Positions 1,050 through 56,142 of a stretch of 64,000 bases of DNA are shown piece by piece. The stretch's first letter is position 1, and each line of letters starts with the position of its first letter. Source of the stretch: a virus. The DNA is taken from UHGV virus genome UHGV-0038496; one strand, written 5' to 3'. The notes below the pieces were generated by a model. The model had not been told where the DNA came from. It saw nothing but the letters and a program-made list of their open reading frames with translations, and made no database searches. Both the position numbers and the translations under genes were made by a program.

Positions 1050-1971
1050 CACATGTTCAAGGAGTTCGTTACGCTCCCCCGCACCTTTACGTGCAAAGCC
1101 ACAAGATTTCTCCTGTGGGTCGGACTATCTCACGTTCCTAGATCAGCCACAGGAACCCTCCCATTTCGACCGCACTTGCTGGCCTACTCTACTCGCTTCT
1201 TCACATCAACCTGTGTTGACGCTATGCTTTCGATAGTCTCTGAACGCGACTACCAGGTGTAGTTTTTAGAGATGTGTTTCCACTGCCTTCTTTGCTTTAT
1301 GGCTCTGACTGTTCCATAAGGATACCCAAGATCCCTAATCTCGCACTGTCTCATACCACTTTGCAACAGTTCACAAATCTCTATCACCTCAGCTTCTGTT
1401 AGCACAGCGTTAGCGTTATACTCGCCTACTGGCCTAACTCTGAGGTCATTATCATAAGCGTGTTTGATATTTTTGCCTTGAGTTGTCCACTCCAGATTCC
1501 AGTATGCATTGTTGTACTTATTCCCATCTTTATGGTTCACATAGGTGAATTTTTCAGGATCAGGATTCGGTACAAAGCATTCAGCAACCAAGCGGTGAAC
1601 ACCTTTTGTACACTGCTTCCCATCAATGAACATGATTACGCAAAGGTAACCTCTACCGTTATCAAAACTGAACATTGTTGTGTGATCACGTTTAGATAAA
1701 GGTATTGTTCCGTCATCAAACACAGTGTATCCATGATAATCAAATGATCTAGCCATTTTAACTACACCTCTTTAGTCTTCGCTGCGGGTTGGCATATTGA
1801 GTTTTACCACATTTTGGCATAAAAGTCAACTTAGCGTTCCCGTCAATTAAAGAGGTTATTCGACATAGATTACTCTATGAAGCCACAATGATGTTTATGG
1901 TAATAGATGATTCTTCTGACACCTAGGTCATACCAAGTTTTATTATCTATTTTCAAGGTCATCAGGTTGCG
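1050..1971 (-). mobile_element. group I intron (about 0.92 kb) in the DNA polymerase gene, carrying an HNH ORF
   Basis: Conserved core elements read on the minus strand in canonical order: P-like AATTGACGGGAACGC (rc of 1834-1848), Q-like AACCCGCAGC (rc of 1781-1790), R-like GTTCAGAGACTATCG (rc of 1231-1245), S-like GAGATAGTCCGAC (rc of 1119-1131). Upstream exon ends in U (CAT), intron ends in G (GTG). Boundaries are predicted, not folded. Confidence 0.7.
1250..1756 (-). CDS. intron-encoded HNH homing endonuclease
   Basis: 168 aa with HNH_3-type motif VHRLVAECF...VNHKDGNKYNN..NLEW.T...N.KHA and a C-terminal HTH-like tail; RBS GAGGTG upstream; lies between the Q and R elements of the intron. 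Confidence 0.8.
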   Translation of the reverse strand: MARSFDYHGYTVFDDGTIPLSKRDHTTMFSFDNGRGYLCVIMFIDGKQCTKGVHRLVAECFVPNPDPEKFTYVNHKDGNKYNNAYWNLEWTTQGKNIKHAYDNDLRVRPVGEYNANAVLTEAEVIEICELLQSGMRQCEIRDLGYPYGTVRAIKQRRQWKHISKNYTW

Positions 1972-4329
1972 ATGAACCAATAAGCCTACCAGATCACACA
2001 ATGAAGCACCACCATTCTGCTGATATGCATTCAGCAAGGAGTGTTTAGAGCGTGTCCAGATGGCATGACCATCGAAAGCATAGATAAATTTCTTACCTGT
2101 CGCCTCCCAGAATTTCTCAAGTGCCTCTTTACGACCTTTCAGGCCGAAGTTGGTATCCCAGAATGCGTCAATTACTTGCTGACCAACCTCTGGCACAACG
2201 TCAAGCATATCCGCTACTTTATCCTTTTGAGCACCATACATCACGCCATAAGTGATTGGCTTACCATCACCACGGGAAACCTCTCTGCCCACAACTTTAG
2301 AGTAGGCTTTGGCGTTCAAAGCATGTGCGTCCCCTTCGCTTATGATCCTGTAATACGCCCCGTTGTCGAAATCGTAAGCACCCCATGCACCTATCAGCTG
2401 TTCAAGGTTGGAACCATCAACACCCAACTGATACTTACCTGGAGCAGGTTTCCAGAGACTACGCATCTCTTTACCCAGCACAACCTTTGGTGAAGGTTTA
2501 GGCTGGTTGGCACATATTTTATGTTTCTGTCGTCCGGTAGCAGTCAAACCGGAGCTTTCTGCTGGTAAGCGGTGATCGATCTGCAATCTCGGATGATTCA
2601 ACAATCCAGTATCAACCTTATCCTCTTTGATTGGGTCGAGTACTGACCTACGGTTACGCAATGACAGCCAGAACACAATGTCTTTTGCCATCTCTCCTTG
2701 CAATCTTGCCAGATTAGGACACAAATGCCCGAAGCTATCTTTCAGCTGTGGGGATGTTGGTAGCCCTCTGGCTTTACGCCGGAACTTGGCGAACACCTCC
2801 TGTTCAACCCTGGGGGAGTTCTTACGACTCATGAACTTCGCTTCTGAAATTTTGAATCGCGCATCCCTGTTCAGTTCACGAATGATCAGGGTACGATACT
2901 CGGATGTTTCCAGTTCATCCATGTACTCCCTTACTTTAGCATCAATTTCAGCATCCGGCAACTGTTTTTTGTGGTAGTCACGGGTTAAATCTTTCGTTCT
3001 CCACATTGTTGGTTGCCAGCCTACAGAGATCAGATAACGCTTGATATCCATCTGGTTATTCATTCTCATGGGCACCATGCAATCAGGCATTTTCTTATCC
3101 TGCAAATCCTTAATTGCCTGCTGCATCAAATCATCCGGCAGAGGTTTAGGTGCTTCCTCTGACCGTGCTGCCCTCAGAAAGTCTGCCTGTTTTTCAGGAT
3201 CAGTGCAACCTCTTTCCTCACACCATTTAACACCTGTAGCACTAACACTCCCATCTTTGTTGAAAGCCCGTTTAGGTGCAGGTTTGAAGTCAAAAGCTGC
3301 TTCATTAACCGGATACCCAAGTTTGTTCTTCAACCAGCTGTAGCCGTGTGAAGAGATACTACCATCTGTATTGAACGGTTTCTGTGGGAACTTAGGCTTC
3401 TGGGCCTCTGAAATTTCTTTCAGTGGCAGCTGTGGTTCCACACGATCAGCGATCTCTTTCATCATGTCATCGCATTTCTGACGTAAAGCTATCGCCCCAT
3501 CAATATCAAAGTAAACACCTTGTCTTGCTTGTAAGCCCATCAAGAAGTGCTGGAGCATACCACGACGCAGAGCATACTTCCAAGTGATTTGTTTGAATCC
3601 GCTGGGTTTCTCTTTGTCTGGATCATACATAAAGTTTTGCATGTCAGATTTGCCGTAGAATGTCCCTTTGGACTCGGCGATCAGTTCGTCCCAGAGCAAT
3701 TCCTGAATGATAACGTCTTCCCATACACGGTCTACGTATTTCCAGAGTGGAAGATTGCGCCAGTCATCAATCTTAACTTTCTGGTTGCCAAGTGCATAGC
3801 CCCAAGCCATCAACCCATGTGGACCTACAGCTTGACTTTTCTTAGTTACCGGATTGAATACCGCCTCTGGACAACCTTTCGGTAACGGGCGATCAGGCCA
3901 CAATATACGACTCATCGGCAAAGTATCAAACAGGTTAACCCTGTGACCGTTGATGGTCCCCATGCAATCTTTATCTTCGAACAGGTCGAAATGAATGCCT
4001 GATAATTTTTCAAATAGGATAAAATCGTAGTCAAAACAGTTGTGACCCACTAAAGCGGTTGGCGACCAATCAGAATGTCCTGTCAGCCACTCTTCCATAT
4101 ACCCAAAGTCAGCAACCCGCACCTGACAGTTTTTGTAAACTGTTTGTTTATTGAGAGCGAATTGTTTCGCTGTTTCTACATCTTCCTCGGAGTAATGAGT
4201 CCTGTCGTTTAGCGGCAGGAATAGTATGAAGTTGTTTTTATGATGTTGTTTGTACAATGTGCAATGATAGTAGAGGTCTTTTTCATCAAGCAACCCACTA
4301 CTTTCTGCGTCAAAAGCCCACAATGCCAT
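1972..4329 (-). CDS. DNA polymerase, family A (T7-like), exon 1 with 3'-5' exonuclease domain
   Basis: N-terminal exo motifs FDAESSGL and HNCFDYD; polymerase motif A VDGSNLEQLIGAW (T7 VDASGLELR); motif B R..GK.ITYGVMYG; the track ORF runs 34 codons into the intron to a stop at 1870 with no HDE motif; RBS AAGGAG before the ATG at 4329. Confidence 0.85.
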
Positions 4330-4345
4330 ATGTTCTCCTTATAAG

Positions 4346-4371
4346 GGGGAGTTGGCTGTACTGCTCTCCCC
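4346..4371 (-). other. GC-rich stem-loop without a U-tract, between primase-helicase and polymerase
   Basis: Stem GGGGAG/CTCCCC with 14-nt loop, immediately upstream of the polymerase RBS. Confidence 0.3.
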
Positions 4372-4386
4372 ACTCTCAGTTAAGCA

Positions 4387-6459
4387 TCAGAACGGACAAT
4401 CTTCATCCTCAGGGAACTCCTGTTGGATTACGCTTTGATCGTCCCCTCCATCATCCTCTTCTTCTCCTTCCGCGTCAACAGCTTTTGGTTGAGGTTTCAC
4501 ATCGGCGGTAACTTTACCTTCTGGAGTTTCCACAACAACATGCTCTTCATTGTCAAACATATCTTGCGGCCTCCAGACAATATCTCCATCTTTGTTCAGG
4601 AAGAAACCTGTCTCCTTATCCCACACCCAGTCGCTGGCATCGGAGAATTTACCAGTCTCAGGGTTCATAATCAGCACATCAGCTATGCCTAAGGTTTTAG
4701 CTGGCCTGTTTTTCAGGCTAACTAAACGAACACGCCCACGGGACCTGTCAGGCATCTCTTCTGCTTCTACCCCTATGACAACCCAACTGAGTTGCTCCAT
4801 CGATCCACTACCACGAAGGTTTTCTTTACGGACAGGATACCAGAACGGTAAAGCCCTGCCTTCTTTATCCTTCGGTGGGATAATCTCTGTGCGACGCAAG
4901 TGGGCAATCGCCAGGATGAACACATTAAATTGCTTACAGAACGCTGCAAGCTGTGTCATTGCAAGGTCTAACTCTTTGCGTTCATCTTTTACATTCAAAC
5001 CAGAGATAACCATCGACAGGTGATCCAGCACGATGTAACGACAATGATACAAGCACACCATCTGTTTCAGTTTTGTGATCAGGTCGTTTACAGGTATTGA
5101 ACCGAAGTGCCGGAATACCCTGATTTTGTCAGCATCAACCCAGGCTTTGTGGATATCAAAGTGCTCCTGCTCGGTTAGATACTTGCTTGGATCTTCCATG
5201 AAATTCTTGATATCGTATCCCAGCTGGTTAGCATACAGTGAGTTGATGGCTTCTTCTGGGTCTTCTTCCAGGTGAATCATACACAACCTGTCTTCTGGGT
5301 CGTAGTCATCAGCTTTAGCCACCGTAGGATCCATCAGGTATTTAGCTATCTGGTGCTCAATTTTCTTGGCTACCGTAGTCTTACCACCACCAGAAGGACC
5401 AGTCAGCATAACCAGTGTGCCTTTATGCAAACCTTTCAGCATTTTCTGTAGTTTAGGGAACTCTGCCCCAATATCAACCCCGTTGGTGGATTTTTTACGT
5501 AAATCTTCGATTGAGAAATCACTCAGGCCTGCTACAGCATCTGGCACGTATTTGATCGGGTTTTTGAACATATCGTGAATTTGATCATACTTTTTAGCCT
5601 GGAACAAATCACGGATATCTTTGTAACCCTCTGGATCATTTACTTCACTCGGATACTGCACATGGAAAACGTTGTCAGCCATCAGGAAAGCTGCAACATT
5701 GTGAGTGGCTTCAACACCTTTGGTGACATGTTTTAGCTTCTCAACATCGTTTGCAGCGTCGTTGTCGAAGGCCAGGACAATCTCATCAAAGCTACGAATG
5801 AACTTCTCGTTGTTGGCAAAAGCATCTACGGCATTCGCGCAACCACAGTTAAGCCCTACCACGTTGATTGTGGGAAAACCTTTAGCAGAACCACCATCCT
5901 GCACCGCTTTAATACCGTCAAGAACGCTTTGTGCCCACGCTTTAGCTTTTTTATTTGATGATGGATCTGTAGCTATTTTCCTCACCATCATCCATTCAGT
6001 CTGCCACGCAGCAATAACGTCGCCTTCACCTTCGCAGACAATGATTTTACGATGGTCCGAGCCTTCCCCAACCATTTTCTGACCAAAGAACTGGCTGTTG
6101 GCCTTAACAACAGAAACTACGGTAAAATGCCCCTTCTGCTCTTTTGGGATAGTCCAGTCACGTTTCTTGTAACCAGTCAGGTTGCCATACTTATCGTAAT
6201 ACGGAAAGTATGTAGCAACAATATCCACCCCGTTCTCTTCTGAAACTGCGGAACGGATCCCGAAGTATTTAGCAGCTTCTAAACCTATGTTTTGCTGCGG
6301 AACTTTCAGTATCTTTGTAGAAGCCAGAACACTTTCGACTGTTTCTTGCTCTTTCTCGTCTCTGTAATCTCTTCTCACACTCCCTCCGCTTCTCCATTTT
6401 GTTGCTTGTGGGTTAGGTTGACCAAACTTGGCATAAGCTGAACTAAAGAAATTACCCAT
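4387..6459 (-). CDS. DNA primase-helicase (T7 gp4-like; TOPRIM plus DnaB-like helicase)
   Basis: TOPRIM-like IIVCEGEGDVIAAW, Walker A MLTGPSGGGKTT, helicase motifs (VLDHLSMV, AIAHLRR); 690 aa. Confidence 0.85.
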   Translation of the reverse strand: MGNFFSSAYAKFGQPNPQATKWRSGGSVRRDYRDEKEQETVESVLASTKILKVPQQNIGLEAAKYFGIRSAVSEENGVDIVATYFPYYDKYGNLTGYKKRDWTIPKEQKGHFTVVSVVKANSQFFGQKMVGEGSDHRKIIVCEGEGDVIAAWQTEWMMVRKIATDPSSNKKAKAWAQSVLDGIKAVQDGGSAKGFPTINVVGLNCGCANAVDAFANNEKFIRSFDEIVLAFDNDAANDVEKLKHVTKGVEATHNVAAFLMADNVFHVQYPSEVNDPEGYKDIRDLFQAKKYDQIHDMFKNPIKYVPDAVAGLSDFSIEDLRKKSTNGVDIGAEFPKLQKMLKGLHKGTLVMLTGPSGGGKTTVAKKIEHQIAKYLMDPTVAKADDYDPEDRLCMIHLEEDPEEAINSLYANQLGYDIKNFMEDPSKYLTEQEHFDIHKAWVDADKIRVFRHFGSIPVNDLITKLKQMVCLYHCRYIVLDHLSMVISGLNVKDERKELDLAMTQLAAFCKQFNVFILAIAHLRRTEIIPPKDKEGRALPFWYPVRKENLRGSGSMEQLSWVVIGVEAEEMPDRSRGRVRLVSLKNRPAKTLGIADVLIMNPETGKFSDASDWVWDKETGFFLNKDGDIVWRPQDMFDNEEHVVVETPEGKVTADVKPQPKAVDAEGEEEDDGGDDQSVIQQEFPEDEDCPF

Positions 6460-7186
6460 TGAGTTTGCTCCTTACAACGGGTTCGTTGGCTTCAAATACT
6501 GCTAATGCCCAACCACGAGGTGTCAGGCTCCTGATCATTTTGGTACGAGGAGATTTTCCTCCCAGCTTGGTATGTTGGAAAGAATACCCATTTACATCAC
6601 AAATCTGCGGCACAGGTCGTTTCTCAGGGACAACAAAACCATTTCCGAACCATCCACAGGTTAGCTTCGGATAAGCATCCCTGGGCTTAATCAGGTCAGG
6701 GAACCACGGGTTCTGATCGTCTTCCGGCAGATAGCCACCATACTCATACGGATGGAACTTGTAGTCCGGTTTACGCCACATATTGGACATAACACCAACA
6801 GGGTTCTCCACATGCCACGGACAATTATACATGTTACCCAGCGTTTCTGCAATACGTGCATCTTTTACAGCATTGACCTGAATCAACGGATCTTTTTGTA
6901 GTTTTTTCTTGAAATGCGCTGCCCCAGATACCGCTAAGTGGGTACATGGTGGAAACGACAGGATGAAATCTGGTGCAGGATACATCCCCAGGGTTTCTTG
7001 TGGAAACCACGGGTCAATCCAGTAGTCGATGTACTGAATGTTAGGGTGTTCCTCTACTACCTCTGCATAGCTCCCGTGATCTGCCCCTTCTGCGTTGAAG
7101 CAGAAGCACAGATACCCTGCATCAGCCCAGGGTTTGACAGCAATATCAGAGCCATTGAATAATGCCCACACTACGCCTTGCTTCAT
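6452..7186 (-). CDS. hypothetical protein (about 244 aa)
   Basis: Track ORF 6452..7258 trimmed to the ATG at 7184-7186 (MKQGVVWALFNG...) because it has an RBS GGAGGG 9 nt upstream and the longer reading frame runs through a terminator hairpin. Confidence 0.5.
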   Translation of the reverse strand: MKQGVVWALFNGSDIAVKPWADAGYLCFCFNAEGADHGSYAEVVEEHPNIQYIDYWIDPWFPQETLGMYPAPDFILSFPPCTHLAVSGAAHFKKKLQKDPLIQVNAVKDARIAETLGNMYNCPWHVENPVGVMSNMWRKPDYKFHPYEYGGYLPEDDQNPWFPDLIKPRDAYPKLTCGWFGNGFVVPEKRPVPQICDVNGYSFQHTKLGGKSPRTKMIRSLTPRGWALAVFEANEPVVRSKLNG

Positions 7187-7212
7187 ACTATTTAGCCCTC
7201 CAAACACAAAAA

Positions 7213-7232
7213 CCCCGCCCTTTCGGGCAGGG
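7213..7232 (-). terminator. rho-independent terminator
   Basis: GC hairpin CCCCGCCC-TTTC-GGGCAGGG followed on the minus strand by TTTTTGTGTTTG; downstream of the 7239..7712 gene. Confidence 0.6.
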
Positions 7233-7238
7233 CTGTTA

Positions 7239-7712
7239 TTACTCGACGCGAATCCCAATTGTATACTCTGTTGAGACTAATGTCAAGTCTATGTTTAAAA
7301 TTTTATTCAGTTGTTCGAAATGTTCCTCTGTCAGATAAATCTTTTCAGAGGCTGTGCCAGTTAAATGATACTTCAGGAACCCAGGGTAATCGCTTATAGC
7401 GTAGCGTAGGCACCGCATTTCAGTTGGGTTGATGTAACCGTCATGCATCACCATCTGAGCTACGCCCAGTCCAGCATAGAAGCTCTGAGACTCTTTCAAG
7501 TAGTGCTCCCATACTGTTGTTTCTTTTTTAATCAATCCGAAGAACTTCTCTTCGACATAACGTTTGTTTTTAAGATATTTCAGAATCCTGTTACCAATCA
7601 CTGCAAGATCACGGAATTTAAGAGCAGCTTTTTGTAGCGTTTCCCGTGGTACTTCAATCAGGTCTTGTGCAGCAGGACCAATCTTCCAGAGATAGTCGCT
7701 TTCGTAAATCAT
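7239..7712 (-). CDS. hypothetical protein
   Basis: 157-aa ORF; overlaps neighbours in operon-like fashion. Confidence 0.5.
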   Translation of the reverse strand: MIYESDYLWKIGPAAQDLIEVPRETLQKAALKFRDLAVIGNRILKYLKNKRYVEEKFFGLIKKETTVWEHYLKESQSFYAGLGVAQMVMHDGYINPTEMRCLRYAISDYPGFLKYHLTGTASEKIYLTEEHFEQLNKILNIDLTLVSTEYTIGIRVE

Positions 7713-48491: not shown

Positions 48492-49256
48492 TTAGTTCAC
48501 ATCAATACCACGGTCAGATTGGTTAGCGATAGCTTCGCCATCTGTTGTCGAAATAACACCAGAAAATTCACGTTCATCAACAACAGTTTTGAAATTGTTT
48601 CTGTTGATCGTTTGATCAGCATCCGTAAGCAGCAGGTCTTTGTTCTGTGCAAGCAGAGAACCAACTGGGATTGGGTTTTCCATTTCAGGACCAGACCATT
48701 CGCTCCACCATGTAGCATCACCAGTACGCGGTAGACGGAAGTTGATCAGATAGTAAAGTTTGTTAGCCCACTTGATCCAACCATCGTCATCACACAGGGA
48801 TGTAGAGCCAGCTTCTGGTTGTGGGTATTCAAACTGGTCGAAGCCTATGAATGCAATCCTGACGATCTCATTCTCTTTGGTAACCACCTCAAAGAATGCC
48901 TGATAGGTACGGGATCTGCGATCCATTGTGGATTCGAAGTTAATAATGTTCAAAACATCCGGTTCTTCACGGGCAATGGAACGAATCTTGTTATCAAGAA
49001 TGGTTTTCATTACCTTTTTGCCAATGTAATCGAGATATGGGAAACCGAACGTCTCGTCCCAATACCACGACCCTTTCCATGTGTTGAACCTCATCCAAAG
49101 CCTTTGTCGTAGGCTTATCTGGTTTGACTCTATCACCTGAAGACCAGAACGTATGTCCAGGTCCCCCGTAACAGGGTCCATTAAGAAATCTGAATACAGT
49201 GTTGACATTTCTTCTCCTGTTAACCGGGTGTAGAAGTGCGACCGCCATGAGGACAA
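48492..49256 (-). CDS. hypothetical tail / baseplate protein
   Basis: 254-aa ORF in the structural operon. Confidence 0.4.
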   Translation of the reverse strand: MSSWRSHFYTRLTGEEMSTLYSDFLMDPVTGDLDIRSGLQVIESNQISLRQRLWMRFNTWKGSWYWDETFGFPYLDYIGKKVMKTILDNKIRSIAREEPDVLNIINFESTMDRRSRTYQAFFEVVTKENEIVRIAFIGFDQFEYPQPEAGSTSLCDDDGWIKWANKLYYLINFRLPRTGDATWWSEWSGPEMENPIPVGSLLAQNKDLLLTDADQTINRNNFKTVVDEREFSGVISTTDGEAIANQSDRGIDVN

Positions 49257-49903
49257 GCATAAGTGTGGGCTTTGTATTCCTGATAGAAACTATCAAGGTC
49301 AACGCCGTTGGCAGTGATCATTCTCCCTTCAGGAGTGACCTTTGCCCCATTCATCACGATGTTACCATCTGTCTTAGCAGTCAGGCTTGCTGCCCCGTTG
49401 TTGAAGCTAAACTCACCAGATTGATCCACAACCAAAGTACCAGCCGGAGTCTGCAATGTAAAGTCTCCGTTCGGTGTCATTGTGAAATGCACTTGGTCAT
49501 TATACAGCTCAACGTTCTCCGGGTCAATAGGCATTGCATTACCATCTGAATGGACAGAAGTAATCGCCCATCCAGGGAACAGGCCATGAGTTTGCATATC
49601 GTCGTTGTTGTTCTCATTACGTTCAGAGAACTGCAAACCAACGATATCCCCAGGCTTGATTGGTAACGTCAGCCTTGCCTTACCACCATTGGCAGATACC
49701 ATTTGAAGCGGAACATCGTAAATCAGTGGAAAGCGATCCACATCGTCATCTTCAAAATATGTCTCAGCCAGAGGCTGGACAGAAGCAGAAGGAATGGAGT
49801 AGTCCACAGAGACAACTCTTGCTCTCACAGAAGTGTGAAAGCCTCGCATCGTCTCCTCGATGAAACTACGAAACGCTGCATCTTTTCTGGCAAGTGTTCC
49901 CAT
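49220..49903 (-). CDS. putative baseplate spike / assembly protein V-like
   Basis: 227 aa with a beta-rich repetitive C-terminal half, in the position of P2 gpV / Mu gp45-type spikes. Confidence 0.4.
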   Translation of the reverse strand: MGTLARKDAAFRSFIEETMRGFHTSVRARVVSVDYSIPSASVQPLAETYFEDDDVDRFPLIYDVPLQMVSANGGKARLTLPIKPGDIVGLQFSERNENNNDDMQTHGLFPGWAITSVHSDGNAMPIDPENVELYNDQVHFTMTPNGDFTLQTPAGTLVVDQSGEFSFNNGAASLTAKTDGNIVMNGAKVTPEGRMITANGVDLDSFYQEYKAHTYACPHGGRTSTPG

Positions 49904-50568
49904 TATTCCTCCTGACTGTCATCAACTAGTAGAGAATCTCTGTAAGAAATTGCGTCAGATAGGTCTTTAAACTGCCTTCTTCTCTTCCCCGGAACTTGAA
50001 CTCTCCACCTGCCACGTTCTTTAGCAAAACGGATATATTTTTCTCCAGACAGATTATCAGACCTTGCTCTTACCTTAATCTTAGGTGCTATACCTGAGGC
50101 AATATCCTCCTCCGCTCGTTCCCTGGCCTCCACAGCTTCTTCAAAAGTATCAAAACTTCCAAGGCTATATTTATGGTTACCATGCACTACCGCTGCTTTC
50201 CACTTGTGCTTAGTATTGCAATAGTGGACACCCGCGACACCTGAAGTGTTATTAATATTTAAATTTTTTCTTTTAATACAAGAGGTGTTCACAGCAGGTG
50301 TGACCAGCTCTAAATTCTCAATGCGGTCATCCCCCCGAATGCCGTTTATGTGGTTAATAACCAACCCTTCTGGGATAGGGCCATTGAACATTTCCCAGAC
50401 AACCCTATGTCTGTAGAAACGTTCATGACCTACACCAACATGCCAGTACCCGTGCCCCGAATCGCACCCAACTTTTGCCCCTGTGTAATGCCCGTTGCGG
50501 CTGGTTTTCCAGAACAACTCCCCATCTACATATAGAAAATGCTCATGAAAATTAATCATCGCTTCCAT
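49903..50568 (-). CDS. free-standing HNH homing endonuclease with AP2-type DNA-binding domain
   Basis: HNH_3 motif LVINHINGIRGDDRIENLELVTPAVN; AP2-like SGVAGVHYCNTKHKWKAAVVHGNHKYSLGSFDTFEEAVEARERA; likely start is the second ATG at 50559 (RBS GAGGA); overlaps both neighbours. Confidence 0.75.
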   Translation of the reverse strand: MEAMINFHEHFLYVDGELFWKTSRNGHYTGAKVGCDSGHGYWHVGVGHERFYRHRVVWEMFNGPIPEGLVINHINGIRGDDRIENLELVTPAVNTSCIKRKNLNINNTSGVAGVHYCNTKHKWKAAVVHGNHKYSLGSFDTFEEAVEARERAEEDIASGIAPKIKVRARSDNLSGEKYIRFAKERGRWRVQVPGKRRRQFKDLSDAISYRDSLLVDDSQEE

Positions 50569-51601
50569 CCTCTATAACACCAGCGTAACACTCCCCAAGG
50601 CCCAATTCTGTAATCCAATCACCTCCTTCAACTTGCCCTTTGTGGTGAACTGTAATCACTTTGTAGAAGCCTGTGTACCGTCTACTTTTCAGGTAGATTG
50701 TTGATTCAGGGATAATTGCACCATTCAGCACCGTGGTCACCGTCAGGCCAACATCCTCTTTTGGATTTTTCTTTTTCTTTTTCTTACCAGTTACACCAGC
50801 TTGTTCATCTGTGATCGGGCTTTTACCTTCTTTGCCACCACCTTTGGCAGCAGCTTTTGCTTTACGTTTTTTAGCAGGTTCTGGGTTCTTAGGTGTGGGA
50901 GAACCGTGCATACCAGTCTCTGCACTGATCTCGTAGACTGAATCTTTAAACCGTTTACCAGTCTTAGTCCAGTAGACTGCGCCATCCTGAACGCTGAAAT
51001 TAGAGTTGGTAAGACGTGCAAACTTCCTAAGGTTCTCAGCCGTGTTGCCGGAGAAAGCCATAGAATATTGCAAAGTCTGATTCCCGAACTTAACCACACG
51101 TCCACGGGGCAGGTTCATATCGTTCAAAAGATCATTCAACACCGTATCCATCGGAGTACCTTTGGCATACGATCTTGTTGTCTGGCATTTGATAATGTTC
51201 TCTGTACCATCACCGAAGATCAGTTTAGTCTTACGGGTTGGACCATCCCACGTATCTTCCACAAACTCAACTGTGCCGGAGAAGATAACCTGGTTATCGT
51301 TATCATAGCCTGCTTCAAGCAGAACAGCAACGGCATCTGCTTGATGGGCATCAAGATAGTTCACTGTATCATCTGACAAGTTGTAGACAATCACATAGCC
51401 TTTGTTTGGCTCTTTGGAATTATCTTTCTGCAAATCAAACTCGATGTTGGCGAATCCGGTATCGGAGCTGATCTCATAGACACCGGAATCTGATTCACTA
51501 CGCTTTTGAACTGCTTTCGGGATATCCACCTTCGTTTTCCCTTTAGCGACCACACATCTACCGAAGAGTAATCGCCAGGTTCTGTGTCTGTACTCAGCCA
51601 T
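50552..51601 (-). CDS. putative baseplate hub / tail protein with poly-Lys tract
   Basis: 349 aa; position after tape measure and two small tail genes; internal KKRKAKAAAKGGGKEGK...GKKKKKKNPKED. Confidence 0.4.
   Translation of the reverse strand: MAEYRHRTWRLLFGRCVVAKGKTKVDIPKAVQKRSESDSGVYEISSDTGFANIEFDLQKDNSKEPNKGYVIVYNLSDDTVNYLDAHQADAVAVLLEAGYDNDNQVIFSGTVEFVEDTWDGPTRKTKLIFGDGTENIIKCQTTRSYAKGTPMDTVLNDLLNDMNLPRGRVVKFGNQTLQYSMAFSGNTAENLRKFARLTNSNFSVQDGAVYWTKTGKRFKDSVYEISAETGMHGSPTPKNPEPAKKRKAKAAAKGGGKEGKSPITDEQAGVTGKKKKKKNPKEDVGLTVTTVLNGAIIPESTIYLKSRRYTGFYKVITVHHKGQVEGGDWITELGLGECYAGVIEDGSDD
50755..50780 (-). repeat. homopolymer-rich simple repeat (CTTTTT)n encoding a poly-lysine tract
   Basis: Plus strand tttttctttttctttttctt inside the hub-like gene. 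Confidence 0.6.
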
Positions 51602-51604
51602 AAA

Positions 51605-51982
51605 TTACTCCATGTAGATTTCATCGTAGAGGCTTGCAGGTGTACCGTACACCAGTTGCAGCTCAGAACGTGCACCCATATTATAGCGACCACAGCGGCC
51701 CCAGAAAAGCTGATCCTTAAAACTCAGGACTATCAGCTTACCTTTTGGTAAGTCATCCCTGTAATGTAGGCCATCGAGAATGTCCTGGCAGGCGCAAACT
51801 TTTCGGCATACCAGAGGATCATCCCCTAATGCACCGAGAGATAACCACCAGGATTCATCCCTCTCATTCCATTGCAGTCGCATTTCGTAGGTTTCATTAT
51901 CAAGCACAACACGCATAGTTTGGTCTGCATATCCATCAATGTCCCACGTAAACGTGATGACACATACTTCTTTGATTTCCAT
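51605..51982 (-). CDS. hypothetical tail protein
   Basis: 125-aa ORF in the structural operon. Confidence 0.4.
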   Translation of the reverse strand: MEIKEVCVITFTWDIDGYADQTMRVVLDNETYEMRLQWNERDESWWLSLGALGDDPLVCRKVCACQDILDGLHYRDDLPKGKLIVLSFKDQLFWGRCGRYNMGARSELQLVYGTPASLYDEIYME

Positions 51983-51990
51983 ACGCCACC

Positions 51991-52875
51991 TTATTTGTTG
52001 TCATGCATGTAGTTATTTTGCTCAGAAGGAACGATTGTAGAGTTACCACCATATTCCTGACGATAGGCTTCCTGAACAGTCATACCAGAGTTTTTTAGCT
52101 GGATGTTTTTCTGTCCGTCCCACTTCTGTTTAGCATTGGTGTATGTCGTATCTGCATACGGACTGGCATTAGCAGAGTTACCAACGTTACTGTCCTTCGT
52201 GCAATCGTTAACCGCACCTTTCTGTTTTGATTTATCAACCTTTTTAGGATTTGTGTAGACAGTAGCATTGACCATCTTGTTGAGGACGAAAGTTCTGAAC
52301 TCTGTCAGCTCAACATCGAACACCAAAGCAGCACCTTCACCTGTGCTTTTCTTCGCACTACATTTGGTAACTATGTAGTTTTCAAGGATAGCTTCCTCGG
52401 TTACCAACGTAACCAATTGTCTTCTCTTGATAACTTCACCCATTGCCTGTAATGCAGCTTCAGGCCTTGCAGAGTCTGCTGGTCTTTGTGGGTCAGTGTT
52501 TCTGTCAATGTAGTTTTGTTCGTACACTATGTGTGGTGAAGTATTCACCCTACCTGTGAAGGAGAATACTGCATCCTTGATCACTGCGTGATCCGAAATC
52601 GTAACACGGTCTTCGACCGCAAACTGTGTTTTATCAACACTTCTGTCGAAAGTATAATTCTCAATCTGGTCAAATATGATAGCGATATCGTTGGTGAAGT
52701 TTTTACCCTTCAACTCAATGTTACGACCACCATAATTCAAGCCGCTGATGAACAAAGTAAACTGTACGTCCTCTGTCTCTTTCTCAGCTTCTTCTGCCTT
52801 CTCTGACCTGACCAGCTGAGGTTTATATAGGTCTTTTTCATCGACCACTTTTTCTACACCGGGTGTATATGGCAT
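51991..52875 (-). CDS. hypothetical tail protein
   Basis: 294-aa ORF; RBS GGAGAGG; first gene after the terminator-promoter pair downstream of the tape measure gene. Confidence 0.45.
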   Translation of the reverse strand: MPYTPGVEKVVDEKDLYKPQLVRSEKAEEAEKETEDVQFTLFISGLNYGGRNIELKGKNFTNDIAIIFDQIENYTFDRSVDKTQFAVEDRVTISDHAVIKDAVFSFTGRVNTSPHIVYEQNYIDRNTDPQRPADSARPEAALQAMGEVIKRRQLVTLVTEEAILENYIVTKCSAKKSTGEGAALVFDVELTEFRTFVLNKMVNATVYTNPKKVDKSKQKGAVNDCTKDSNVGNSANASPYADTTYTNAKQKWDGQKNIQLKNSGMTVQEAYRQEYGGNSTIVPSEQNNYMHDNK

Positions 52876-52909: not shown

Positions 52910-52938
52910 ATTATACCATAGAAATGGGGTTTTTACAA
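52910..52938 (-). promoter_or_regulatory. sigma70-like promoter with extended -10 (TTGTAA, 17-nt spacer, TGG-TATAAT)
   Basis: Read on the minus strand: TTGTAA (rc of 52933-52938), 17 nt, TGGTATAAT (TATAAT = rc of 52910-52915). Confidence 0.55.
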
Positions 52939-52954
52939 GTTACATAAAAGAAAA

Positions 52955-52971
52955 GGGGCCGCGAAGGCCCC
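52955..52971 (-). terminator. rho-independent terminator after the tape measure gene
   Basis: GGGGCC-GCGAA-GGCCCC hairpin followed on the minus strand by TTTTCTTTTATG. Confidence 0.7.
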
Positions 52972-52979
52972 TTGAAAGG

Positions 52980-54088
52980 TTAGTTAGTAGGACTTGCAAA
53001 CAGGTTAATATCTTTCCAATTTTCCCATTCAAATCTTGCATCCAGCATTTCTTCGAACTGAGCAGCGTCAAACTCGATTGTAATTTTACCCTCACCAACT
53101 TCCAGAGGAATTGGAGGAATTTCGAAGGATGGTAACGGATCCAAAGGTGTACTTGGAGTTGGATTAGCTCTGTAGGTAATCGGGTTAAGCATACGGTAAT
53201 CCAGGCCAAGGAAAGATGAAATGCCGTTAACACCATCGACAAGCCACTGCGGATGTTTGGTCACGTCAGTTTCCTGGTGGTAGTTTTGCATCCAATCATC
53301 CAACATACCAGCACCTTCGTACCCCATGTAGCCCAGAGCTAATGGTCCTTTCCATTTCCACAGTCCACCAAGTAACCGTGCAAACAATCCTTTCTTAGCC
53401 ATGGCTGCTGCACCACCCGCAGCTGCACCACCTGCGGCGGCACCACCGAGAGCACCTGCAACACCTCCGGCAGCTTTAATCATACCCAGGGTTGCGGCAA
53501 CAGCTTTGACGATTCTCAGCAATTTCCATACGGCGTTAACAACAACTAAGATGGAGAAAGCATAGCCTACCCATTTAGCTTTGCTGAATGTTTCATCAAC
53601 AGTGTCACTTGTATCTTTGACTTCTTTTTTCAGCAGACCAAAGTGGTCTTTGACTTGCAACCACCAGATACGGATACTGACAATCGTGTTGTTCAATTCA
53701 CCAACAATGTCGTTCAGACCCTGGATAAATCCAGATACAAACTCACCAGCCTGCATGATCATTGGGGTGAATGTTTCTCCTGTGCGGATCAGGGTGTAAT
53801 AAAACTCGGTGAGTTCATCTGACCATGTGGTGAACAGTTTTTGTTTAGTCAATTCGATGAAAGTTTTCAAACGGTTTTCAGCCAGAACGTTAGATTTCTG
53901 CATACGTTCATAACCAGCAGCTGACGCTTCGTTCATGTACTTAGCAACGTATTTCATCATTTTGGCTGTTTTGACCTGGCCTTTCTGCATCATGTCCATG
54001 AATTGTTCCATAGACAGCTCAGACAGGTTGAAAGCCTCTTTTGTTGCTTTAATGAACGGCTCGTAAGCACCTGGCATTGCTTCAGCTA
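52980..54088 (-). CDS. tail tape measure protein, exon 2
   Basis: Track ORF is TTG-initiated with an in-frame stop just upstream at 54108-54110; contains a Gly/Ala-rich hydrophobic segment (GGVAGALGGAAAGGAAAGGAAAMAKKG) typical of tape measure proteins; predicted 3' splice site after G at 54089. Confidence 0.6.
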
Positions 54089-54917
54089 CCAATGTCCAGA
54101 CAGTTCGCTACGCTGTCCCGGTGTGCTAAGACACCCGCCACACATTTCTGTGTGGAGCAGACTATATCTTCTCTGGATAACCAGAGCCAACCATTTCAGA
54201 GGCGCTTGCCTCTTACACCGCTACACTCATCACGGTTAGTCGTTGAGCACATAACTTATAAATCTTTCAGCAGTTTAGACCATGCTTTCTTAGTCTTGAT
54301 TCGAACAATTGCTGATCTGCAAGCACCAAATTCTTCCATCAAATCTGTTGTATTCTCAAACCGCCTGTTATAAATTTCGATAACCTCTTCTGCTGTGAGC
54401 TTATGATTGGCATTTGACTCACCAGAGGCATCATTCAGGCCATTTGCAAAAGCATGTTTCTGATTGCCAGATCGAGTAACATACTCCAGATTATCTTTAT
54501 GGTTGTTTGCTTTATTACCGTCCTTATGGTTAACTTCCATCCCAGGTTGTGGAGGTTCACCAAGGAAAGTAAGGGCAACTATTCTGTGAACAAGATACAA
54601 CACACATTTGCCGTTTACCCGAAAGTAAACGCGTTTGTAACCATTGTGTATTGTCTGCTCAGTCAACTGCTTCCGTGTGTTTCTTCTTGTAGAGAATATT
54701 GCACCGTCCTCTCTACAGAAGTACCCATCGTGACCAGGAACTGGTCGGATTTCTAAGTTACTTCGCTGCGGATTATCCATTGTTACATCCTCCAAACTTT
54801 TTACCATACCCCGAGTAGTTACTTCGGGCCATAAACATGTTACCACATTTATTTGGTATTTGGAAGGCTTTAGGAGCTTCCCGCAATTAGGTTGGTTTTA
54901 TAACAGCTAGTATGTCA
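54089..54917 (-). mobile_element. group I intron (about 0.83 kb) in the tape measure gene, carrying an HNH ORF
   Basis: Read on the minus strand: P-like AATTGCGGGAAGC (rc of 54876-54888), Q AATCCGCAGC (rc of 54765-54774), R-like TCAACGACTAA (rc of 54236-54246), S AAGATATAGTCT (rc of 54159-54170). Candidate P1: exon AACAGU pairs with intron GCUGUU, with U-G at the splice site. Intron 3' end GGACAUUGG is homologous to the polymerase intron 3' end GAACAUGUG. Boundaries predicted only. Confidence 0.65.
54256..54780 (-). CDS. intron-encoded HNH homing endonuclease (paralogue of the 1250..1756 product)
   Basis: HNH_3 motif VHRIVALTF...VNHKDGNKANNHKDNLEYVT...NQKHA; shared LTAEEVIEI block; start taken as ATG at 54778-54780 with RBS GGAGGA (track ORF extends upstream to 54846). 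Confidence 0.8.
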   Translation of the reverse strand: MDNPQRSNLEIRPVPGHDGYFCREDGAIFSTRRNTRKQLTEQTIHNGYKRVYFRVNGKCVLYLVHRIVALTFLGEPPQPGMEVNHKDGNKANNHKDNLEYVTRSGNQKHAFANGLNDASGESNANHKLTAEEVIEIYNRRFENTTDLMEEFGACRSAIVRIKTKKAWSKLLKDL

Positions 54918-56142
54918 ACTGTTGTTTTAGTTCCTCAGACATTACCTGTCCTTTACCAAGCATTTGCTGTATCGCCATAATACCACGCTGATATTTTACT
55001 TCATCAGCACCATATGACGCAGCATATTGCGAATAAGCAGAGAACAGATCACGGACTTCCTGCCCTGTCATTTGGTTTTTGGCGTTTACTGCCATTTGAG
55101 AGTAGCCTTGCAGACCTGATTTCAGGTCGAAGCCTAATCTCATAGCTTCACCTTGTACGAATGCAACTTCCGAGTTAGCTTTCGTAGGATCACCCATAAC
55201 GTTGGTAAGAGCAGCACTCGCACCTTCCATCATGTGACCGGATTTGTTAACACTGACAATTGCAGAGAATGCGGTGTACGCTTTAGTCAAATCCATGACT
55301 GTTGTTCTTAATTTATTAAAAGCGGTGCTCAGAGTCATGGTTCCAGCAGCAGCATTAGCAAACCCCTTCTGCATTGCAGCGATCTGGGCGTTGAAAGTTG
55401 ACTTACCTATCAACCCTTTTGCATATTGCTGTTCAACCTGACGGTAGCCACCTAACATATCCCTAAAATTAGCCCCATAACGAGCTGTCAGACGCGTTGA
55501 CATGTTGGTAAGGTGTGTTAGCCTATCCATACCCACATTATTGCGTTTGGGCGTTCCTGAGCTGCCATTTTGCTTGTGCCATCTGTTCATTGCAGCAGTC
55601 TGGGCACGAACAAGTGCTGGGTTGGAAGCTACACCACCCATGTTGGGGTTACCTGGGATATATCTGAAGGTATTTGCTCTGGACAGAGCACGGGGTGAGA
55701 CTGGTTTGTTGGAGAAGTAGGAACTACCTAAGCCACCACTTTTCTTAGCCAGTTTGGATTGTTCCTGATAGAATTTACGCATTCTCACCAATTCAGGATC
55801 TTTGGCAGTCATCTGACCGACAACCTGTTTCCTTCTGGCGTTCTCACGTTTTTCTATCGCAGATCGTACAGCAGCTTCACGTTTAGCCTGGGATACAGCT
55901 TCCTGATGCATACGGCGTTGCTGTTGCAACTGTTTATTCTGTACCCTCTGAACAATCTGACCAGTCTTCTCCATCGATGCTTGCCAGGCTTTCAGAGGAT
56001 TCCCCTTTCCCAAAGAATCGCCCAGCTTTGTAAACTCCCTGCCTAATCCTTTAATTCTTTCAATAGCTTTTTTATAGCTATTGTTATCGATCTCAAATGT
56101 AATTCGGTTTGTGGTTGTGGCAACCACTTTGTTACCAGCCAT
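54918..56142 (-). CDS. tail tape measure protein, exon 1
   Basis: Long alpha-helical, Q/A/K-rich N-terminal region; RBS AGGAGAG before ATG at 56142; the track ORF continues three codons into the intron to a TAG at 54907. Confidence 0.6.

Follow-up and report, generated by a model that had tools for sequence, protein, structure and literature searches.

A probable free-standing HNH-AP2 homing endonuclease gene docked between the baseplate hub and spike genes of an rV5-like phage

Introduction

Free-standing homing endonuclease genes (HEGs) of phage T4, namely mobE, segC, segF, mobA and mobC, are located between essential genes and occur sporadically among relatives, according to the available part of PMC2988022. 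Their start codons overlap the upstream open reading frame (ORF) by 1-24 nucleotides (nt), that is by 1 nt (UAAUGA) in mobE and by 11-24 nt in the others, which was read as translational coupling or re-scanning with low nuclease levels as the outcome; for the 20-24 bp overlaps of segC, mobA and mobC, back-scanning and low-level re-initiation were proposed (PMC2988022, same part). The 'IPA-HNH' proteins of ICP1-like phages consist of an N-terminal HNH and a C-terminal AP2 domain, and the available portion of PMC10448857, which cites the AP2-endonuclease family as its reference 45, describes HNH-AP2 HEGs as enriched in certain lineages, often beside essential or structural genes and at boundaries of genetic exchange. 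The Vequintavirinae are rich in free-standing and intron-borne HNH genes, with 23 HEGs in Pectobacterium phage CB7 (PMC7344957, in the portion available). The gene described here encodes a protein of 221 amino acids (aa) and was found in the virus genome UHGV-0038496, of which a stretch of 64,000 nt (the window, on which all positions are counted) was analyzed. By sequence comparison and by analogy with the described systems, it is very probably a free-standing HEG whose product combines an I-HmuI-like HNH_3 nuclease with a tandem AP2 module, and it is located in a late baseplate operon. The initial annotation had called it an intergenic homing element; relatives with an empty site bear out the homing element, whereas the word intergenic does not hold.

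Position and occurrence of the gene

The gene and its two immediate neighbours have the following coordinates:

49903..50568, minus strand: predicted HNH-AP2 endonuclease ORF, ATG to TAA, 221 aa, 666 nt including the stop codon
50552..51601, minus strand: baseplate hub gene, 349 aa, matching phrog_196 baseplate hub (7.5e-77)
49220..49903, minus strand: baseplate central spike gene, 227 aa, starting at TAATG
50552..50568, minus strand: 17-nt dual-coding overlap, in which frame 0 encodes the hub tail and frame +1 begins the HNH ORF (ATG at 50568)

The HNH gene does not lie in an intergenic gap, as none exists, but sits within the last hub codons. Both overlaps claimed in the initial annotation, with the hub stop and with the spike start, are read directly from the sequence and amount to 17 nt and 1 nt. 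The HNH gene starts 17 nt before the end of the hub ORF (ATG at 50568, hub stop codon at 50552-50554), and a single base belongs both to its TAA and to the ATG of the spike (TAATG, 49901-49905), which AGGAGG shortly precedes. The position of the ATG at 50568 is also kept in the carrier contigs L003 and L005. A second in-frame ATG at 50559, which would give an 8-nt overlap, is not conserved in the orthologues. At the conserved start GAGG abuts the ATG, so that this start is without a well-spaced Shine-Dalgarno (SD) sequence.

Six orthologue clusters with 58-91% aa identity were found in a large protein collection, and every orthologue contig that was fetched (L003-L009 and L011) carries the HNH gene between hub and spike with the same overlaps, 14-23 nt with the hub and 1 nt with the spike. 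The carriers form two clades. Clade A comprises the window, L003/L004 and L005 (hub identity 92-95% within the clade), and clade B comprises L006, L007-L009 and L011 (94-96%); hub proteins are approximately 61% identical between the clades, and the hubs of HNH-less Vequintavirus phages are nearer to clade A (81-84%) than clade B hubs are. In clade B the HNH gene starts with TTG, approximately 23 nt before the hub stop.

The gene is missing from close relatives of both clades. Four clade A phages from IMG/VR (L012-L015), with hubs 89-95% and spikes 94-98% identical to those of the window, join the hub directly to the spike by TAATG, and a sliding-window comparison with the window gave 85-95% nt identity on both flanks and a clean hole at the HNH gene. 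The IMG/VR phage L016 of clade B also lacks the gene and represents the empty allele of that clade. Direct 1-nt overlaps of hub and spike are likewise present in the cultured phage RudolfGeigy (L001; hub 6001-7005, spike 7005-7682) and in Klebsiella phage P8734 (L002; hub 3001-3990, spike 3990-4691), and the two genes are adjacent in the remaining INPHARED records giving both coordinates. Because close relatives of each clade are without it, the HNH gene is optional within both clades. The synteny comparison proposed in the initial annotation therefore found no universal presence, the gene being absent from L012-L016 and from the cultured relatives examined, and the overlaps conserved among the carriers are taken to show a conserved docking architecture and not an essential gene.

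Structure of the insert

Comparison with the empty-site relatives defines the insert and the native sequence that it uses:

49929..50577, minus strand: insert of 649 bp relative to empty-site relatives, placement ambiguous by approximately 9-12 nt
49903..49928, minus strand: captured native hub 3' end, encoding the HNH C-terminus VDDSQEE-stop and containing the AGGAGG SD of the spike and the TAA overlapping the spike ATG

Pairwise alignments of the window with L012 and with L015 contain a single 649-nt gap, as do those of L003 with L013 and of L005 with L014, and in clade B the gap of L016 against L006 and L007 corresponds to an insert of 646 bp. The ambiguity of placement is due to GTWGATGAY, which is present at both ends of the insert. 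The 649-bp insert is shorter than the 666-nt ORF and contains no stop codon of its own, no spacer and no non-coding DNA. Both insert lengths are 3n+1, so that the HNH frame enters the native last hub codons and stops at the hub TAA. The empty junction reads ...GGTGTGGTTGATGACAGTCAGGAGGAATAATGGGG, with the hub tail VVDDSQEE-stop and TAATG; in the filled allele of the window the last 26 nt of the HNH ORF are the native hub 3' end in its original frame, identical to the L012 hub end GTTGATGACAGTCAGGAGGAATAATG, and the original AGGAGG...TAATG junction to the spike is left intact. The last 5-7 codons of the hub are an insert-encoded substitute tail (IEDGSDD in the window, VDDGRDD in L003 and VDDEN in L005, each followed by the stop), which also holds the HNH start codon in the +1 frame. 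Clade B is built in the same way, the HNH protein ending in LLDEDKK-stop as compared with the L016 hub tail IIDEDKK-stop. The GC content of the insert (0.43-0.45) matches that of the flanks and is uninformative on a foreign origin.

The gene is free-standing in that the insert is entirely ORF and that hub and spike are separate genes in the empty alleles. An intron or intein origin was rejected, since Rfam searches of the whole window at the gathering thresholds and of positions 49600-50900 at E ≤ 10 gave chance hits only. A hub-HNH fusion by programmed frameshifting found no support; the overlaps of six carriers share no slippery motif, and a +1 shift would be needed. A 43%-identical paralogue (L010, 6001..6696), from an unrelated region of a 142-kb contig, overlaps the gene upstream of it by 1 nt and the one downstream by 17 nt, which suggests that tight packing is usual in this HNH family.

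Predicted domains of the protein

Sequence profiles and a structural model predict that an HNH nuclease domain of the I-HmuI type is followed by a tandem AP2 module for DNA binding, at these coordinates:

50287..50415, minus strand: HNH_3 nuclease motif, residues 52-94, with H73, N85 and N94
50098..50244, minus strand: first AP2-like repeat, residues ~109-157 (model strands 114-117, 122-129 and 132-139, helix 142-157)
49924..50046, minus strand: second, degenerate AP2-like repeat, residues ~175-215 (model strands 179-182, 187-190 and 198-200, helix 203-215)

The Pfam search suggested in the initial annotation gave a clear HNH_3 match at residues 52-94 (71.1 bits, E=5.9e-20; curated cut-off 24.8 bits), which confirms the 221-aa ORF as an HNH_3 protein. 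HNH_3 is also matched by 25/25 homologues, and the PHROGs assignment is phrog_99 'HNH endonuclease' (5.5e-56). Residues H54, H73, N85 and N94 are invariant in the alignment of the 25 homologues, and in an alignment to I-HmuI (PDB 1U3E) H73, N85 and N94 correspond to H75, N87 and N96. The AlphaFold model has a mean predicted local distance difference test score (pLDDT) of 77.5 and begins with a beta region, followed by the HNH core and by two units of three strands and a helix. The core contains strands 70-73 and 86-89 and helix 91-94, with pLDDT 85-94 over residues 40-90; pLDDT is below 50 at residues 219-221, just after the last helix. Foldseek matched I-HmuI with a probability of 0.98 but with E=0.025 and a template modeling (TM) score of 0.34-0.43, calculated for the whole multidomain model.

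The AP2 assignment falls below the curated cut-off (33.3 bits) for the window protein alone and is supported at the level of the family; it is upheld because the homologues, the family profile and the model all support AP2. Pfam AP2 is matched by 23/25 homologues at E ≤ 0.01 (best E=2.8e-12), and the family profile matches the AP2 crystal structures of Arabidopsis WRI1 (1.3e-8), TEM1, ERF096 and AtERF1, as well as I-HmuI (2.6e-7). In the model the AP2-type arrangement of a three-stranded sheet and one helix occurs twice, at residues 114-157 and 179-215, and the second repeat aligns with the clear second AP2 repeats of the homologues P0015-P0020. Foldseek matches include the tandem-AP2 proteins WRI1 and PfSIP2, and the AP2 domain of TEM1 with a probability of 0.98.

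Selection and alternative explanations

The ratio of nonsynonymous to synonymous substitution rates (dN/dS) of the HNH gene is 0.10-0.15 in five informative pairs, compared to 0.04-0.06 for the hub and 0.02-0.08 for the spike. For most pairs dS of the HNH gene is near that of the flanks (0.34 vs 0.51-0.52 for window-L003, 0.70 vs 0.88 for L006-L007). These values indicate purifying selection that is weaker than on the two structural genes, and a gene that as a rule moves together with its flanks; together with the invariant catalytic His and Asn residues, they argue for selection and not decay. The HNH gene of L005 has diverged further than the genes beside it (75% aa identity vs 93-96%), with dS saturated. 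Relative to the hub, dN of the HNH gene is 1.5-3x within the clades and ~0.9x between them, which hints at transfer after the clades split, although the saturation of between-clade dS makes this pattern inconclusive. In a stretch of approximately 20 nt before the insert, three positions, mostly synonymous, separate the three clade A carriers from the four empty alleles (GGG vs GGT, not-GCA vs GCA and GTT vs GTR); the sample is small, and the difference would agree with either a short co-conversion tract or site immunity.

Several observations weigh against the reading as a homing gene or limit its support. Orthologues are rare: tblastn against INPHARED found no full-length orthologue above 47% identity, the matches being paralogues at other genome sites, and IMG/VR and JGI metagenome contigs gave only paralogues of ≤ 48% identity. 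The gene persists at one site in two clades with hubs ~61% and HNH proteins 58-62% identical, and this similar divergence between the clades is as readily explained by long vertical carriage and an occasional precise loss as by active homing. In the protein, Asp74 of I-HmuI is replaced by Asn72, and the AP2 match at residues 109-148 reaches only 25.3 bits (E=2e-5). The absence of promoter- and terminator-like sites from the coding strand at 49903-51600, which speaks for the homing reading, comes from a scan restricted to sigma-70-type consensus sequences. Cleavage, the target site and homing itself are ascribed to this locus by analogy with known HEGs, as described in the available parts of PMC2988022 and PMC10448857.

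A domesticated HNH protein, maintained for a phage function rather than for mobility (as a cofactor of packaging or terminase of the HK97 gp74 type, in the regulation of spike expression or as part of the virion), would agree with the intact ORF and its low dN/dS, with the conservation of position and overlaps in two clades so distant in their hubs, and with the location inside an essential late operon. It is nevertheless improbable, as phages with ~90% identical flanks (L012-L015 and L016) and the examined cultured relatives couple hub and spike directly without the gene. Moreover, the gene is not beside terminase or portal genes, where HK97 gp74-type genes are positioned, its product matches no virion protein family in PHROGs, and its domain set is typical of sequence-specific HEGs. 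An inactive relic of an old invasion, tolerated since its removal must be precise, would explain the Asp-to-Asn change next to the catalytic His, the degenerate second AP2 repeat and the rarity of orthologues. This is still less probable than domestication, considering that all informative pairs give dN/dS well below 1, that the 221-222-aa ORF is free of frameshifts and premature stops in all carriers and that H73, N85 and N94 are invariant. Position 72 in turn is N, D, R or K across the homologues, so that N72 is not unusual for the family. A transposition-like insertion, in which a staggered break at the hub tail was filled in and left a duplicated tail on both sides, is the least credible of all, as its support, GTWGATGAY at both insert ends in clade A and substitute tails of near-equal length resembling the native ones (VDDGRDD vs VDDSQEE; IEEDKKS vs IDEDKK), is offset by a resemblance beyond 9 nt of 62-67% within a clade vs ~56% across clades (hand count), too weak for a target-site duplication to be called, by the acidic GAN-rich codons of all tails, for which selection for an acidic hub C-terminus gives the same picture, and by the established movement of HNH_3 HEGs through break repair from a homologous donor (PMC2988022, available part).

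The interpretation as a free-standing HNH-AP2 homing element, proposed initially, is supported by the sporadic presence, the precise boundaries, the common site and overlaps of the carriers, the domains, the selection and the assortment independent of a second HEG, and by the fact that the gene is neither intron- nor intein-borne.

Expression and proposed mode of homing

The anatomy of the junction suggests translational coupling of the HNH gene to the hub gene. With its start 14-23 nt ahead of the hub stop in the carriers and no well-spaced SD, the geometry matches that of T4 segC, mobA and mobC. A consensus scan found no promoter- or terminator-like site on the minus strand in the ORF or at its edges, in agreement with the initial annotation, which had described the gene as without a promoter or terminator of its own. 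The T4 late motif TATAAATA is also absent from the region. The nearest upstream signals are:

52910..52973, minus strand: terminator-like hairpin (52973..52953) followed by a promoter-like site (52938..52910), both from the consensus scan only

The hairpin is strong (8 bp, 6 GC, T-rich tail) and the promoter-like site, which has an extended TG, scores 10/12. Located between the tape-measure gene and Dit, before the Dit-plug-hub-HNH-spike run, the two signals may mark a transcription-unit boundary ahead of hub, HNH and spike. RNA structure at the two junctions did not differ from that of shuffled sequences (z-scores 0.07 and 1.10). A predicted hairpin UAUAGAGGAUG...CAUUUUCUAUA (50530..50575, minus strand; z=0.07) would sequester the HNH AUG, and its conservation in L003/L005 is not obvious by eye.

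In the proposed course of events, small amounts of the protein would be made from the late operon mRNA by re-initiating or back-scanning ribosomes that finish the hub. During mixed infection the protein would recognize the uninterrupted hub/spike junction of an HNH-less relative, a sequence whose conservation would follow from the SD and the stop-start overlap within it. A nick or cut at this junction would be followed by recombinational repair, copying the insert and some flanking markers into the HNH-less genome. The genome of the carrier would be protected in that the insert splits or alters the site, and spike translation would be preserved through the retained native AGGAGG-TAATG.

That this seamless docking represents an evolved, heritable stealth architecture and a general mode of HEG insertion at stop-start overlaps is a speculative idea that is rather doubtful at present. 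The features in question are the stop-less 3n+1 insert, the in-frame capture of hub tail, stop, SD and coupled start, and the substitute tail that doubles as the nuclease start. If the idea is true, an HEG could persist for a very long time in an essential late operon at almost no cost, and its presence and absence could form a balanced polymorphism across clades only ~61% identical, possibly as a weapon in mixed infections.

Genomic context and other HNH genes

The genes surrounding the insert were assigned by Pfam and PHROGs as tape measure, Dit-like, Pam3_gp18-type plug, hub, spike, wedge and tail fibre, and by these assignments the region is the baseplate module of an rV5-like (Vequintavirinae-related) myophage. 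The window hub has 77-81% aa identity with Vequintavirus hub proteins. The N-terminal domain of the spike is Pfam PF18352 (2.3e-8), and the spike is ~74% identical to Vequintavirus spikes, including the 'baseplate central spike' of RudolfGeigy, and also matches phi92 gp138 'baseplate spike'. The module is otherwise ~90% identical between L003 and the window at the nt level, with patches of only 52-69% at ~53600-53800, 52000-52200 and 51600-51800, which are the C-terminal part of the tape measure, the Dit C-terminus and the plug gene; these patches point to mosaic exchange inside this module.

A second HNH_3 ORF of the window is located in an element that interrupts the tape-measure gene:

54087..54915, minus strand: tape-measure element of 829 bp with an HNH_3 ORF at 54256..54846 (196 aa)

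In the E-value mode of Rfam a full-length match to the group I intron family (RF00028) is present at 54138..54927 with 24.8 bits, below the gathering threshold of 50 (E=7e-4). Residues 1-414 and 414-775 of the RudolfGeigy tape-measure protein align on either side of the element without loss. The boundaries were set by the intron-less L042, and the mapped 3' end of the putative intron is not G unless one extra Val codon is retained. The element is present in L003, L004, L006, L040, L041 and L043 and absent from L007, L008, L042 and RudolfGeigy. This putative intron HEG assorts independently of the HNH gene between hub and spike, as three of the four HNH-less clade A phages L040-L043 have the element and one does not.

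A third HNH_3 ORF (1250..1756, minus strand, 168 aa) has a Pfam score of 25.8 bits, just above the cut-off, and lies immediately downstream of an 819-aa ORF (1870..4329) with a weak DNA polymerase A match. L005 contains an extra HNH_3 gene of 170 aa (2970..3482) between the spike and the sheath-initiator/wedge gene, which it overlaps by 4 nt; the window has no gene at this position.

Significance of the locus

The locus is a clean natural example of a selfish nuclease gene, as it is interpreted here, that enters a tightly coupled structural operon without breaking it. With filled and empty alleles in two clades, the insertion boundaries are known to a few bases. These alleles would provide a substrate for studying target recognition by a tandem-AP2 HNH enzyme, whose module shares its fold with plant AP2/ERF factors, and are also suited to asking whether translational coupling throttles nuclease expression. 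For annotation, it should be noted that the C-termini of both the hub and the HNH protein are chimeric in carrier phages.

Comparison with known systems

The gene resembles the T4 HEGs in its overlapping start and its sporadic presence, and MobE is also an HNH enzyme. Like the starts of mobE and segC, that of the HNH gene overlaps the upstream ORF, here by 14-23 nt, and the sigma-70 consensus scan found no promoter-like site of its own. Unlike in the T4 HEGs, both ends overlap the neighbours here, and the ORF is fused in frame to the last 8 codons of the upstream gene and reuses their stop, SD and coupled start for the downstream gene. The available parts of PMC2988022, PMC10448857 and PMC7344957 do not describe an ORF that borrows the last eight codons, the stop and the downstream coupling signal from the gene that it interrupts. 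The tandem AP2 module also differs from the T4 types, and the location is a baseplate operon and not a set of nucleotide-metabolism genes. With I-HmuI of SPO1 (PDB 1U3E) the protein is predicted to share the HNH_3 catalytic core and the N-terminal beta-sheet region. I-HmuI, however, is an intron-encoded nicking enzyme with a helix-turn-helix C-terminal domain, whereas the present gene is free-standing and encodes AP2 repeats. The HNH-AP2 HEGs of ICP1-like phages are likened to it by architecture, although the lineages highlighted in the available portion of PMC10448857 are Barbaviruses and Flaumdraviruses and not rV5-like phages. In carrying three HNH_3 ORFs, one within a putative group I intron, the window is like the Vequintavirinae. 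It differs from the cultured members in INPHARED, which have no orthologue at the hub/spike site, and from Pectobacterium phage CB7, for which no HEG is listed between hub and spike in the available portion of PMC7344957. The locus is no new kind of system, and both its HNH-AP2 architecture and its tight packing belong to types already described.

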